Assembly (NCBI GenBank): GCA_964016885.1
Contig: OZ024741.1
Span: 136,400,001-136,464,000, forward strand
DNA from: Eledone cirrhosa
Taxonomy: Eukaryota
DNA: 64,000 nt
Direction: 5' to 3'
In this document: piece after piece, positions 1,898 through 63,135 of the stretch
How positions within the stretch are numbered: the stretch's first letter is position 1
Layout: every line of letters starts with the position of its first letter
Notes under the pieces: generated by a model
Databases searched by the model: none
What the model was told of the DNA's origin: nothing
Seen by the model: only the letters and a program-made list of their open reading frames with translations
Translations under genes and position numbers: made by a program

Positions 1898-2231
1898 TAG
1901 TGACGAAACTATGAACTCATAATCCTTTATTTACTGCTATATATATTTAGATGATAGCCATTGAATGACTATGGCCTCATCAGGCAGTTAGTCAGTTCTT
2001 AGATAATCCAGCTCTGTGTTTATAGTGTTGATGGTATCAGAGCCTTGGGACATATGAGCTTGTTAGGAATAATTTAATGTTGTCATCAGGAATAGTCTTA
2101 ATTCTCATTGGTCAATTTGTAGATGCTAGTAGGGTTGGTATTTGACCTCAAAGAGGCACCAGGTGTTGCAAAGTTCAAACCATCAGGCAAGATGACAATA
2201 GTTCCAACATGACTGATTTTCACAAAAAGCA
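1898..2231 (-). mobile_element. PLE-type pseudo-LTR module between (TA)n tracts
   Basis: Unique sequence bounded on both sides by (TA)n; carries a hammerhead-like motif followed by AATAAA on the minus strand. Confidence 0.6.
1933..1988 (-). ncRNA. minimal hammerhead ribozyme, one core mutation (GAAA>UAAA)
   Basis: Minus strand: ACTGC-CTGATGA-GGCCATAGTCATTCAATGGCTATCATC-TAAA-TATATA-TA-GCAGT-AAATAAA; helix I ACTGC/GCAGT. Confidence 0.65.
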
Positions 2232-2287
2232 TATATATATATATATATATATATATATATATATATATATATATATATATATATATA

Positions 2288-2748
2288 CTTACGGTAAATA
2301 TTTATGAAATTCAATTCAAGCACTGAACGTACTTTTTCCACATAATGGAGTATATTTAGATCAAGAAAATGCGAAGTAGTTTCAGATGTTAAAGTCCTAT
2401 ATTGAAAAGGCTGTACCCAATGCCATGATCTAATCAGACAGCTTCTTACATAATAATTGAGCGGGCGAAGGCTTCAAGAACATAATCTTTCTCCGTTGCC
2501 TTGTCGTTTCAATTTGGATTGTCTCGGGAACGTAACCTTATTATGTAAGAAGCTGTCTGATTAGATCATGGCATTGGGCACGCGGAATCGCGTGGCCACT
2601 GTCGTCATTAAAATATGTACCACAGCCTTTTCAATAAAGGACTTTAACATCTGAAACTACTTCGCATTTTCTTGTTCTAAATATACTCAATCATGTGGAA
2701 AAAGTACGTTCAGTGCTTAAATTGAAATTCATCAATATTTACTCTAAA
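2288..2748. mobile_element. fold-back (inverted pLTR) element in (TA)n
   Basis: Arms ~2296-2457 and ~2538-2742 are reverse complements with scattered mismatches; the left arm lacks ~40 bp present in the right arm. Confidence 0.85.
2552..2626 (+). ncRNA. degenerate hammerhead ribozyme
   Basis: GCTGT-CTGATTA-long stem (CACGCG GAAT CGCGTG)-AAAA-TATGTA-CC-ACAGC, AATAAA at 2633; helix I intact, about three core changes. Confidence 0.5.
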
Positions 2749-2790
2749 TATATATATATATATATATATATATATATATATATATATATA

Positions 2791-3095
2791 CACAAAAACA
2801 TGTAAAAATATATTCTGAAGATTTGGTCAGAGGTAAATAATGTAATTCATCTGATCAATGAAACAATTGTTAATACCTAAAATAAAGCCCCTTGTTGTAC
2901 AGCCAACCATGTTACTCTGCATTCTTTCACTATTATTACTCCAAGTATAACCTCCATAGGAATTACCGCGAACTCGCTGCCTAACTATGGAAGCATCTTG
3001 TTAAGTCAAACAAAGCCGTACGTTAAAACTATCCACAACGCAGAGTACTCACAACCTCTAACTGGATTACCTATAACTATAACTTGTTATCCCAT
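2791..3095 (+). mobile_element. solo PLE-type pLTR module in (TA)n
   Basis: Hammerhead, AATAAA at 2881, GAGTACT at ~3043, then (TA)n. Confidence 0.7.
2811..2875 (+). ncRNA. minimal type I hammerhead ribozyme, intact core
   Basis: TATT-CTGAAGA-T-TTGGTCAGA...TCTGATCAA-T-GAAA-CAATTG-TT-AATA; palindromic helix III ACAATTGT; predicted GUU cleavage at 2871. Confidence 0.8.
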
Positions 3096-3299
3096 ATATA
3101 TATATATATATATATATATAAATATATATATATATATATATATATATATATATATATATATATATATATATATATATATTTATTATAGTTTTAGTCATGT
3201 ACCTGTTCCTGCCATCCAGCAGAGGCCATGCTGAGGCACCACTCTTTTTGATTTATATTCTATACACACCCTGTGTTGGCTGGCAATTGATGTAGGAGA

Positions 3300-3620
3300 C
3301 AGGTCTTTGCTGCTGCAATTAAGTTATCTTCATTCCGTGCATTGGGTTCATCTTGGATAGCAGAGTGTCAAGTTGTTTTTTGAAACATCCACGTATACAC
3401 CATGTCGATTTCTCAAGTTTCTTGGCAGCATATTAAAGAAATTTGGCCTTTGAACCCTAGGTTATTGCAATATCTGCTCCTAAAGTCTAGGGTTTGTCCA
3501 GCTCTCAATACCAAAGTGTGGTGCTAGTCCTTCTAGGATCTTCACATGTATATTACTGCGTACCAAGTTGTAGAGTTTTGTTCTTTTAGCCTCTCCCAGT
3601 AGCTCATCATCGTGGCAATC
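3300..3620 (-). mobile_element. CR1/L2-like LINE ORF2 C-terminal fragment (decayed)
   Basis: Minus strand reads, with frameshifts, MSYWERLKE...YAVIYM*KILEGLAP...FNMLPRNLRN, resembling the CR1-group ORF2 C-terminus. Confidence 0.65.
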
Positions 3621-3800
3621 TATATATATATAACAATATTTATATATAGAGATCATATATATATATAAGAATATATATATATATATAGATCATATATATA
3701 TCTATATATAACAATATATATATATATATAGATCATATATGTATATATAACAATATATATAACTATATATATATAAAAAAATATATATATATATATATAT

Positions 3801-59808: not shown

Positions 59809-59822
59809 AAACCATTGTAAAA

Positions 59823-60025
59823 GTGCATGGTTTAGTGTGTTGTGTCCTTGAGCAAGGCATATCATTTCACTTTCCTCCAGTACATTCGGTTAGCGAAAAT
59901 TAGTTGTATCTGCATTTCAAATCACCACTCTTGTAAGATACTGTGTCACTCTAACTTTCCCCGAGAACTACGCATGTCCGTCTAATGCTCAGCCACTTGC
60001 ACGATAATTTCAAGTGCAGGACATT
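59823..60025 (+). mobile_element. SINE family B, deleted head
   Basis: TTGTGTCCTTGAGCAAGGCA.ATCATTTCAC...ATGCTCAGCCACTTGCACG. Confidence 0.7.
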
Positions 60026-61489
60026 CCAGTTCCAGTGTCCGAAAGGTGGGGTGGGTCAGGAGGTGGGGTGGTGGTGGTGGTGGTGGTGAAGGAGGAGGAG
60101 GCGTTGATGAAATATGTTCTCTGAAAGACGGTAGCTAAAAGTTTGAGAAACTTTGCTCTAAGTCAATAACACCGATGGTATCATTGCAGTTCTGGGTGAG
60201 TATGGCACATGACGATGATGGTGATGAGAGTGAGAATGATGATGATGATATGATAACGATGATGTTTTCAAAATTAGTTGATGCAATTAATATATTCGGA
60301 CTAGATCGACTTTTCTTTTCATTACTTTGTGTGGAGGGGTCAATAAATATATATTTGTGTTCATTTGATATATTATATAGCCCCGCACCCTTTGTAAAAA
60401 TTGGCCTTGTTCCTACCACAAAGAAAGCAAGAATTTTTAGTTGTATGCTTTACTGTATCTAAATTGGTCGTCCTTGTTCAGACATTAATTTTATTCTTGC
60501 TGAGTTCCACTTTGCCTTTGATATTTTCGGGTGAGAAAAACAATTACTACGTACATACGGCGATTGATTCCATCGACTAACATTTCTCAAAAATTGGCTT
60601 AGTTTCTAGCCGAACGAAATTAATATTTTTCCGAAACAAAGGAGGTCTATGTTAATGTGTCGTGTGATAAAGTAGAAAGTAACATTCAGAAGCAAGGCTC
60701 TTTGTCAGAGAAGAAATGACGAAGGTTCTGTCTAGCACATTAATCGATACTTCATCATCTCACGGCAGCCAAATATTCAATAGTGTTTATTTTCCTATTC
60801 AGTTTCTGTCAATACAGACCAGTTTCTTAGACTACCAAGTCTAGTGATTATATTCCTCTAACCTTCTATGAGTGCACAAAATGGGCAGAATTCGATCCTC
60901 AAATTAAGAGGTAAGAAAAGTCAATGAACAACGTTTCAGCGGTGAATTCATTTAGAAATAAAAGTTGTAGTTTTACTGAATAATAAATGTTAGAGGTCTT
61001 AAACATAATTCTTTGAAAAATTGAACAGAAGCTTAACAATTCATTAGAAAAAGTCGAAAACAATAACTTACTCTATAATTACTCTATAATTAATGTTCAA
61101 CTATGTTATCTTAATCGTGTGTTTGTATCTAAGATATGGAATGGAATATGGAATAGGCTTTCGTCGGTTTCAACGATGAGTTTTTCAGTTTTTTTACCAA
61201 CGGAACAGACTTCTCATGAAATTGACCTGTAAGTGAATGAGCATTTCACAGATACATGTACCGTTAACGTAGTTCTTGGGGAGATTCGGCATGACAACGT
61301 GTGTATGGCATGGTGTCCCTTTGAATTACAAGTACAGTCCTTCCGACGGACTTCCAAAGACTCAGTTTTCGTCCACCTAATTTCACCCACAAGACATGTG
61401 CCGACCATCAGCTATGGTAAATGACACTTGCCCAAGATACGACTCACTACAATTGAATCCAAGGTCCAATGATTGTGAAGTGAACGTCT

Positions 61490-62283
61490 TTGTTATTCTA
61501 CCATGCTGTGACCACACTGTATAGGATATATACAATTTCTTTGCTATCCTACCATACTGTGACCACACTGTATAGGATATATACAATTTCTTTGTTATTC
61601 TACCATGCTGTGACCACACTGTCTAGGATATATACAATTTCTTTGCTATTCTACCATGCTGTGACCACACTGTCTAGGATATATACAATTTCTTTATTAT
61701 TCTACCATGCTGTGACCACACTGTCTAGGATATATACAATTTCTTTGCTATTCTACCATGCTGTGACCACACTGTCTAGGATATATACAATTTCTTTGTT
61801 ATTCTACCATGCTGTGACCACACTGTCTAGGATATATACAATTTCTTTGCTATTCTACCATGCTGTGACCACACTGTCTAGGATATATACAATTTCTTTG
61901 CTATTCTACCATGCTGTGACCACACTGTCTAGGATATATACAATTTCTTTGTTATTCTACCATGCTGTGACCACACTGTCTAGGATATATACAATTTCTT
62001 TGTTATTAAACCATGCTGTGACCACACTGTATAGGATATATACAATTTCTTTGCTATTCTACCATGCTGTGACCACACTGTCTAGGATATATACAATTTC
62101 TTTGCTATTCTACCATGCTGTGACCACACTGTCTAGGATATATACAATTTCTTTGCTATCCTACCATGCTGTGACCACACTGTCTAGGATATATACAATT
62201 TCTTTGCTATTCTACCATGCTGCGACCACACTGTCTAGGATATATACAATTTCTTTGTTATTAAACCATGCTGCGACCACACT
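61490..62283. repeat. 51-bp homogeneous minisatellite, about 15.5 units
   Basis: TTGCTATTCTACCATGCTGTGACCACACTGTCTAGGATATATACAATTTCT. Confidence 0.97.
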
Positions 62284-62676
62284 AAGATACAGATATATTA
62301 CTATAGAAGTAAATATATTTGGTGTTATATAAAATCGAAAATTATAACAAATTTAGAAAATTGTCTAATTGTTCTGCCATGCTAAACAAGTTAGTTAAGG
62401 CGTAGTTAATCTATTTACTTGATTTGGGTTCAGCAACATCTTTAAGGAATGTGAGCTGACTTTAAATTATCTAATTCTAATAATTCAATGTTTCGATATG
62501 ATCGATGATGCCACATATACATCAATCGATATTTGACAAGCATACGATTTACGTTCTACTACGTTTGTCTCTGCTTTGAATTGTTTATAGTAATTAGTAA
62601 TGCAACATGTTGAATAAGCAATGCCGTCAGGGTCTCGGAATAAATCATTGATGAGATTAATTCCAGTTCTCTGCAC

Positions 62677-62758
62677 TTTCGTTCAAATTCTACCAAGGTC
62701 AACTTTGCCTTCCATCATTTCGAGATCGATAAATAAAGTACCAGCTTCAATACTGGGT
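62677..62758 (+). mobile_element. SINE family A-related fragment
   Basis: GTTCAAATTCTACCAAGGTCAACTTTGCCTTCCATC. Confidence 0.7.
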
Positions 62759-62941
62759 GGAATTTTCCTCCATATATATTTCCCACTCTCTCTCTCTTTC
62801 TCTCTCTCTCTCTCTCGCTCTCTAATAAATATATATATATATATATATATATATATATAATATATATATATATATATATATATATATATATATATATGTA
62901 TATATGTATGTATATACATATATATATATGTGAGTGTGTGT

Positions 62942-63135
62942 GTATCCCGGCTTCAATCGGGGGTCATCACAGTAAGTAAAGTACTCAATACATAGCAGAG
63001 TATACATTTTTAATATAGAAATGGCTTCTACAAGGACTAAAATTGTTTCATTCGACGGAAATCATCAGGGCTTTCCTGGTGATTTCCTTCGAATGAAACA
63101 GTTCTAGTCCTGTAGAAGCCATTTCTATATTGAAT
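62942..63135. mobile_element. short fold-back pLTR element (family H) with a truncated hammerhead
   Basis: Arms ~63012-63069 and ~63075-63131; minus strand CTGATGA-T-TTC CGTC GAA-T-GAAA-CAATTT-TA-GTCC; tail with AGTACTCAA at ~62980. Confidence 0.8.

Follow-up and report, generated by a model that had tools for sequence, protein, structure and literature searches.

Introduction

How do short palindromes that carry hammerhead ribozyme motifs come to lie inside simple (TA)n tracts? The question is raised by a 64,000-nucleotide stretch of the 3.0-Gb genome of Eledone cirrhosa (GCA_964016885.1, contig OZ024741.1, positions 136,400,001–136,464,000 of the contig), referred to here as the window, in which an earlier note, made from the sequence alone, had recognized seven such fold-backs and tied them to Penelope-like elements (PLEs). 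The origin of tandem and inverted structures in PLEs is named as an open question by Craig (2021, PMC8557442). We report that the two arms of a fold-back, each a 3' end piece (pLTR) of a PLE, almost always stop at two different positions, a short 3' end (S) and a long 3' end (L), and that a characteristic stem follows the S end in nine of ten families. The family letters A to M and the L-numbers of individual genomic loci and contigs are labels of the present analysis.

Results

The two arms of a fold-back end at different positions

Copies were collected from the genome by searches that yielded up to 30 loci each for families E, H, D, B, K (twice), F and M, and 20 for I. These are the top-scoring copies, and the E, F and B queries and the second K query extend into the tail. 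A random genome sample consisted of 79 evenly spaced 10-kb stretches (790 kb, ∼0.03% of the genome). The 3' ends were bimodal in 10/10 families: S lies 17–76 nt after the predicted cleavage site and L a further 65–166 nt beyond S. After removal of duplicates, locus-edge pairs and six pairs with a (TA)n spacer, there were 214 head-to-head pairs without TA in the spacer, 180 of them spanning ≤ 600 bp. One S and one L end were joined in 187 of these; seven were L/L, five S/S and 15 had one unclassified end, so that 187 of the 199 classifiable pairs carried the tail on one end, as in an inverted PLE unit. The rule held equally for bystander pairs not chosen by the query (70/74 classifiable pairs were L/S; binomial p = 6e-17 against 0.5) and in random DNA (22/23 pairs). 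In the window, five of the six direct fold-backs of these families, together with the long family G element, obeyed it; the family B fold-back did not. Solo copies (n = 48) ended at S in 30 cases and at L in 14. Family M has a third, minor 3' end inside the tail, and is apparently young.

Twin stems lie just beyond the two ends

The families had been described as sharing no evident similarity outside the hammerhead motifs. This needs amending, as they share a second motif, a stem in the tail. Stem 1, seen by eye and then by descriptor, consists of RCTC, a stem of 2–6 bp, a loop, the returning strand, a 2-nt bulge and GAGY. It is present in 9/10 families, 3–14 nt (mostly 7–10) after S as called, including 64/71 family F tails; the outer pairs are ACTC/GAGT in seven families, E and M having GCTC/GAGC instead, whereas the inner pairs vary freely among families. 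Shuffling gave p ≤ 0.008 per family, with a descriptor fitted to the same families. In the tails of C, G, H and K there is possibly a further short motif, a TGGT..ACC hairpin 15–30 nt before the L end.

A second stem starts 6–9 nt after L in E, H and M, and in a one-base variant in F, in copies running past L to the ATG. The evidence for stem 2 comes from 16 M arms, two E arms and one H arm, in three of the four families with a tandem junction; in K it was found in 0/37 arms with non-TA flanks, the sole K match being an adjoining F tail. In tandem copies the order is pLTR, hammerhead, S end, stem 1, L end, stem 2, ATG and open reading frame (ORF), and the fold-backs end before stem 2. As an outside check, two stems were found to precede the ATG in each of three Hydra-type contigs that come from other samples and have their 5' region intact (L360–L362, of six loci; shuffle p 0.004–0.016), and their 3' pLTR copies stop, by alignment ends, 3–4 nt before stem 2 (L360) or stem 1 (L362). 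In the supplement of Craig (2021, PMC8557442), one such stem can likewise be made out at the 3' end of Hydra-2_Amil.

Several families belong to Hydra-clade PLEs

The proposed tie between arms and PLE ORFs held for D, E, F, G and M, which connect to Hydra-type ORFs; A, B, C, H, I, J and K stayed unlinked in the loci analysed. In F and M the arms connect to long ORFs: family M has intact 709-aa ORFs (L261, L263), and family F a 606-aa open stretch in L280. Those of D, E and G are joined to ORF ends up to ∼1.5 kb upstream, as in L265, L271 and L272 for the Hydra-type endonuclease end of D, and L264 and L265 for E (∼1.4 kb). A single ORF with reverse transcriptase (RT) and C-terminal GIY-YIG endonuclease, as in the Hydra clade, was found in M and F. 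The endonuclease fragment at 40223–40654 retrieves proteins with RWR, DKT and CxCx5C and without CCHH. RWR, DKT and the linker CNCRNRVDC are present in M, and CDLC/CNLC and CKH/CRH in M, F and G; the last linker Cys is altered in the L280 copy of F. A genome search with a Hydra-type N-terminus gave 12,472 candidates; all 150 of the 150 scored matched, many in open frames of ∼713 codons. Because Pfam gave no domain above threshold, either for the window fragments or for the full ORFs, the assignment of PLE domains rests on motifs and similarity. By these motifs, which match the Hydra alignment in the supplement of Craig (2021, PMC8557442), the ORFs to which D, E, F, G and M link are assigned to the Hydra clade.

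No ORF was found upstream of A, B, C, H, I, J or K in the loci analysed (few copies being available for A, C and J), nor in 10-kb extensions for H, B and K. B, C, H, J and K share tail stem 1 with the ORF-linked families. Families H (∼2.6-kb unit) and I (∼585-nt unit) look, from their sequence, like non-coding, tandem-forming derivatives. In L268 (2804–6717) and L266, family H appears as a non-coding unit of 2.6 kb, in partial tandem, that contains internal repeats as well as both tail stems, and is a candidate large non-autonomous PLE. The Hydra ORFs that adjoin H in three loci (L040, L056 and L058) belong to separate insertions and were rejected as its ORF. Family I is an abundant 585-nt unit with partial tandems (L321–L339) and half a hammerhead core. 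A reading of I as the 3' end of an R4/Dong-type long interspersed nuclear element (LINE) was discarded: the endonuclease-like frame upstream is cut off by (TA)n and other sequence, and is a neighbour only. The frames concerned (L329 185–544 and L326 426–701, oriented) resemble what we take to be an R4/Dong restriction-like endonuclease with a zinc knuckle, and had no Pfam match. The supplement of Craig (2021, PMC8557442) marks an 'HHR_half_core' for Naiad_Ovul, and by analogy family I may depend on Naiad.

Both arms probably copy one RNA

From the sequence of the arms and their ends, we think it likely that each fold-back is one insertion, in which two PLE 3' end pieces, one S and one L, were laid head to head in (TA)n, both target ends having primed RT on one RNA just before each stem. 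The GIY-YIG endonuclease would cut both strands of the self-complementary (TA)n. Two RT protomers, one per stem on one RNA, would start a few bases 5' of each stem, each start being helped by 2–4 nt of TA pairing, and each protomer would extend one target end. Both cDNAs would stop early, at a truncation or at the RNA 5' end, and would then join by microhomology; clustered centres, seen in D, F and M besides K (at about −5 from the core in K, −4 in M, −42 in D and +46 in F), may mark RNA 5' ends or pause sites. Both arms presumably carry the hammerhead because both copy the same stretch, the ribozyme being a pLTR passenger. As a fold-back lacks stem 2 and its arms would pair over the ribozyme, it is probably a dead product.

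For Hydra-clade PLEs we lean, on balance, towards a more specific form of this proposal, in which a twin RNA start signal, two RCTC..NN-GAGY stems before the ORF, would load an RT dimer, and both cut (TA)n ends would copy one RNA from the two starts. If this is correct, the twin start signal explains the tail, the inverted pLTR and the ∼10^5 short palindromes in the genome, and represents a both-ends-primed retrotransposition route distinct from LINE and long terminal repeat (LTR) elements.

The relation between the arms bears on a different route, in which a single cDNA primed at L folds back, DNA-templated copying stops at S, and the product joins the other target end by TA microhomology. 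This would yield the one-tail asymmetry and closely matched arms: divergence was 4.1% within one insertion and 6.8% between insertions (n = 150), which by itself points to one template. The arms reach equally far in 104 of the 159 directly joined L/S pairs, and junctions often fall at natural hairpins (family H). Against it, the S arm extends > 20 nt further 5' in 30 of the 159 (the L arm in 25), by > 100 nt in nine of these 30. Where the S arm holds extra 5' sequence, it cannot have been copied from the L arm, and the L tail, absent from the S arm, cannot have been copied from the latter; as read from the sequence, the often longer S arm is not a simple fold-back copy. At the recurrent junction of family K, five extra 5' bases are on the S arm in 15/21 pairs and on the L arm in 6/21, with 32 further K pairs having other junctions. 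As these bases switch between arms, a single fold-back copy is insufficient, and recurrent identical deletions are unlikely to explain the pattern. Solo S ends also exceed solo L ends, and a stem of its own follows S, spaced as at L. We therefore regard snap-back copying as unlikely.

Could short fold-backs instead be self-spreading non-autonomous elements, resembling MITEs (miniature transposable elements with inverted repeats) or retrozymes, that are copied as whole palindromes? The near-fixed centres of K would fit, and 40/40 scored whole-fold-back matches were full-length palindromes, a result for which the query selects; centres cluster in D, F and M too. With a tail-side query, however, K junctions mostly differ from each other, the side of the tail flips relative to the loop, the fold-backs stop before stem 2, and no link to a terminal-inverted-repeat transposase was seen. 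The earlier suggestion of non-autonomous derivatives is therefore disfavoured for the fold-backs, whose junctions differ from copy to copy and which lack the second stem, and we give it a small probability. Nor did the fold-backs resemble the specific members of this class: the asymmetric (S/L) ends and variable centres do not suit a MITE or fold-back DNA transposon, and the head-to-head arrangement is not that of a non-LTR retrozyme, a head-to-tail tandem with complete hammerheads.

It is about as improbable that the target ends were primed by two separate RNAs, for example a hammerhead-dimerized pair, each picking S or L. The palindromic helix III of most families would permit RNA dimers (cf. 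Cervera 2014, PMC4209133), and S arms longer than L arms would be accounted for. Yet an independent choice predicts 50% L/S pairs and 95% were observed, and the arms match each other better than they match other copies. Finally, assembly or library chimeras are hardly credible: independent reads do not span the centre of the window's family E fold-back, but the arms diverge by 1–12%, the S/L rule is the same at 187 loci on many contigs, the ends fall at biologically defined positions, and the S–TA junction of family E occurs in 13 contigs from an independent run.

Several points weigh against our proposal of one RNA copied from two starts. All of the evidence is DNA sequence, and the reading of two pLTR copies in a tandem RNA would fit it as well as one RNA read twice. 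Twelve pairs, one of them in the window (2288–2747), are L/L or S/S. Later one-sided deletions at palindrome centres could mimic a longer S arm, and snap-back or inter-arm gene conversion would likewise leave the arms closer to each other. The families had already been seen when the stem descriptor was drawn up; family D lacks the exact stem (0/37 tails), and among ∼17 further multi-copy hammerhead clusters, tail-less copies included, only two had a stem within 170 nt. Lastly, the start site of the Poseidon PLE PAc is not homologous to the cut DNA (Frangieh 2024, PMC11167929), in contrast to the short TA pairing proposed here.

The hammerheads, with corrections

A hammerhead had been noted in about nine families. 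A type I fold (core, helix II, GAAA, helix III, cleavage triplet, helix I) could be read across copies in all nine, with the ribozyme strands pointing outward, but several window copies are broken, namely the cores at 1983, 2557 and 63068/63076. From a family-level reading of genomic copies, helix II is long and helix III mostly palindromic. The core is canonical in B, G, H, J and K (CTGATGA in 31/40 B copies), a U3-A8 variant in D, and deviant in E, M and most of F: CCGAAGA in 43/45 E copies, CTGAGAA in 36/48 F copies and CAGAAGA in 46/52 M copies. Self-cleavage is putative in all of the families, E, F and M with their deviant cores included. Strictly intact hammerheads were found in 25/40 copies of B, 1/1 of C, 19/64 of D, 0/45 of E, 8/48 of F, 21/28 of G, 42/50 of H, 13/19 of J, 25/48 of K and 0/52 of M.

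At 44277 (family I), where a hammerhead had also been claimed, CTGATGA is present and no helix II with GAAA box follows it in the 20 copies read. Conversely, a tenth family had been overlooked, represented by the M fragment. An Rfam scan of the window gave no hammerhead at E ≤ 5, the best weak matches being sub-threshold microRNA (miRNA)-like hairpins. A strict hammerhead descriptor gave 51 matches in the 790 kb of random genome, of which up to nine may stem from one minisatellite, and 2, 1 and 0 in three local shuffles; among all loci analysed it revealed ∼15 further multi-copy hammerhead families.

Fold-backs are a genome-wide feature at (TA)n

The locus had been thought unusual in the density of its fold-backs. 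With four TA-flanked fold-backs in the window, where its length predicts 2.4 (P = 0.23) and its tract count 3.5, this did not hold up; (TA)n makes up 11.5% of the window and 4.5% of the 79 random stretches. A family-blind detector, strict enough to miss some fold-backs that the family-based detector picks up, found 30 TA-flanked fold-backs in the random 790 kb, 16 of them from other families, and scaling from this 0.03% sample gives roughly 10^5 per genome. The ten families (B–H, J, K and M) contributed 102 arms, 75 insertions and 25 head-to-head pairs to the same DNA. The predicted enrichment at (TA)n was borne out: 90/101 3' ends lay within 40 nt of (TA)4, compared with 10.4% of random positions in the 790 kb. 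Further fold-back families with one-near, one-far spacing to (TA)n were seen in L243, L253, L281, L293, L303, L308, L310, L314, L319, L352 and L354.

The view of fold-backs as extreme inverted-pLTR insertions of (TA)n-targeting PLEs also stands, as palindromes of 120 bp grade continuously into multi-kb inverted copies that bear ORFs. We conclude that the fold-backs are real, occur genome-wide and represent a known type of structure, the inverted PLE insertion unit, in many cases from Hydra-clade families, and that the locus itself, its hammerheads and its inverted layout are ordinary.

Feature map of the window

All seven fold-backs were recovered by self-comparison, with an arm identity of 88–100% (Table 1). 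Of the RT/GIY-YIG elements whose pLTRs had been recognized among the modules, the GIY-YIG segments do belong to F and G, whereas the RT at 8004–9046 is foreign. A single element spanning 7648–11314 was accordingly rejected: with 39% aa identity and no DNA match, this RT does not belong to the element that ends at 11278. The older Hydra-type fragment directly abuts the F arm without TA between them, as would follow from a template switch or a nested insertion.

Table 1. Positions of PLE-related features in the window, with inverted repeats from self-comparison and hammerhead cores (UTR, untranslated region; SINE, short interspersed nuclear element)
Feature	Positions	Strand	Inverted repeat	Hammerhead core	Remarks
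Family A solo 3' end	1898–2230	−		1983(−)	GAAA box mutated here; intact in L281, L119, L305, L045, L061
Family B fold-back	2288–2747	.	2306–2730	2557(+)	L/L, both arms long (exception); hammerhead at 2557 broken, lost from left arm
Family C solo 3' end with tail (L)	2791–3093	+		2815(+)	
Family D fold-back	3801–4155	.	3877–4144	4050(+)/3971(−)	Left arm L, right arm S; U3-A8 core variant
Family D solo fragment, L end	5378–5527	−			Internal deletion
Family E fold-back	6942–7421	.	6956–7234	7168(+)/7022(−)	Left arm S, right arm L (166-nt tail); core CCGAAGA
Family E tail stem 1	7257–7287	+			GCTC..TT-GAGC; stem in 33/33 E tails
Family F arm, L end	7648–8007	−		7830(−)	Core TTGAGAA; abuts foreign RT fragment
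Broken RT/thumb fragment	8004–9046	+			Another Hydra-type family; interrupted by SINE-like repeat
5'-truncated family F element, L end	9554–11278	+		11096(+)	GIY-YIG 9555–9959, 3' UTR, tail stem 1 11207–11230; 92–94% to ORF-bearing copy in L280
Family G fold-back	13644–13920	.	13747–13898	13828(−)	Long left arm L (holds core), short right arm S
Family M pLTR fragment	14216–14323	−			Autonomous Hydra-type family, 709-aa ORFs elsewhere in genome
Family G element	38507–41311	−		38628(−)	S end with hammerhead, long 3' UTR, linker/GIY-YIG 40223–41099(−)
Inverted L arm of family G element	41086–41311	+		41123(+)	Tail stem 41229–41248
Family H fold-back	43715–44235	.	43869–44216	44123(+)/43962(−)	Left arm L (tail stem 43790–43849, minus), right arm S; canonical cores
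Family I fold-back	44278–45075	.	44278–45072		Non-coding unit of ∼585 nt that forms tandems; only the half-core CTGATGA
Family D solo fragment, S end	45246–45383	+			
Family J solo 3' end (S)	45433–45603	+		45504(+)	Canonical hammerhead
Family K fold-back	62945–63135	.	63012–63131	63076(+)/63068(−)	Left arm L (tail stem 62983–63001, minus), right arm S; both cores damaged here

Other repeats lie among these features. A SINE-like repeat of ∼190 bp has many copies (322–582, 8543–8734, 11439–11536, 46204–47214, 51159–51656 and 63695–63999). A 280-bp island (SINE-like plus unique sequence) is duplicated at 99.6% between TA tracts (15038–15317 and 15626–15905), reflecting either a local duplication or an assembly repeat. 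An AT-rich island at 42397–43653 starts with a short stretch similar to the end of the family J tail, followed by an N gap; to judge from its sequence, the part after the gap may encode an endonuclease C-terminus, possibly from another PLE 3' region. Minisatellite arrays occupy 56289–56921, 58435–59310 and 61484–62332, and a weak 78-bp palindrome without TA flanks lies at 59089–59166.

Discussion

The earlier note had supposed the architecture to be undescribed. The inverted pLTRs and the tail on one side, like the hammerheads and the (TA)n targeting, have in fact already been published (Craig 2021, PMC8557442; Arkhipova 2013, PMC3846280; Cervera 2014, PMC4209133). In the literature searched, most subscription papers being outside its scope, we found no report of a pairing rule or of twin stems; the S/L pairing rule, the twin stems and the S arm reaching further 5' appear to be new in that literature. 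The available part of Bonar (2026) gives PLE counts and no structure, and the families may already be annotated in Dfam, Repbase or the Bonar 2026 octopus library.

The in vitro system of Frangieh (2024, PMC11167929), as far as its main text goes, stops short of explaining PLE inverted structures. The S/L rule and the twin stems make the origin of these inverted repeats directly testable, and cheaply so, and the twin stems are a possible minimal cis-signal for targeted (TA)n insertion. In genome annotation, palindromes of this kind could be taken for MITEs or for miRNA hairpins, as the weak Rfam matches to miRNA models illustrate. The fold-backs could also give rise to double-stranded RNA on a large scale.

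In vitro, the Poseidon protein PAc cuts both strands of AT-rich DNA and extends them, and two internal RT starts bound its tail; hammerhead cleavage is not needed, and the protein is a predicted dimer (Frangieh 2024, PMC11167929). These results fit the mechanism proposed here and give it in vitro support from another clade, with two start sites bounding a tail downstream of the hammerhead as the common feature. PAc nevertheless belongs to a different clade, its sites lie inside the ORF whereas the Hydra sites lie in the 5' UTR, and its main text reports neither S-with-L coupling nor a duplicated stem.

Schistosoma PLEs share opposite-strand hammerhead pairs 100–700 bp apart, the U3-A8 variant and a palindromic helix III (Cervera and De la Pena 2014, PMC4209133); there the pairs receive a passing mention, without mechanism or end analysis in the text available. 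Non-LTR retrozymes (Li et al. 2026, bioRxiv 10.64898/2026.07.22.740005) are likewise non-coding, hammerhead-bearing and derived from PLE pLTRs, but they are head-to-tail tandems with a complete hammerhead per unit, unlike the head-to-head pairs found here; tandems occur here in H and I alone, of which I has no complete hammerhead.

Closest are the inverted-pLTR unit of PLEs and the Hydra clade. The former (Arkhipova 2013, PMC3846280; Craig 2021, PMC8557442) shares the inverted 5'-truncated copy beside the 5' end and a tail on one end; its tails are 30–40 nt (PMC3846280), compared with 65–166 nt here, where the near-strict pairing has been quantified. With the C-terminal, endonuclease-containing (EN+) PLEs of the Hydra clade, including Hydra-1_Obim (Craig 2021, PMC8557442), the families have in common RWR/DKT, the CxCx5C linker, the absence of CCHH, CxxC and CxH in the endonuclease, a single ORF of ∼700 aa, a hammerhead near the 3' end, (TA)n insertion and an occasional inverted 5' copy. 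They differ in that their 3' UTRs reach 1–1.5 kb, three families have non-canonical cores, and the twin stems are not in the published text; and where the clade was described as small, with one octopus family (PMC8557442), the single genome analysed here gave 12,472 candidate N-termini and many families.

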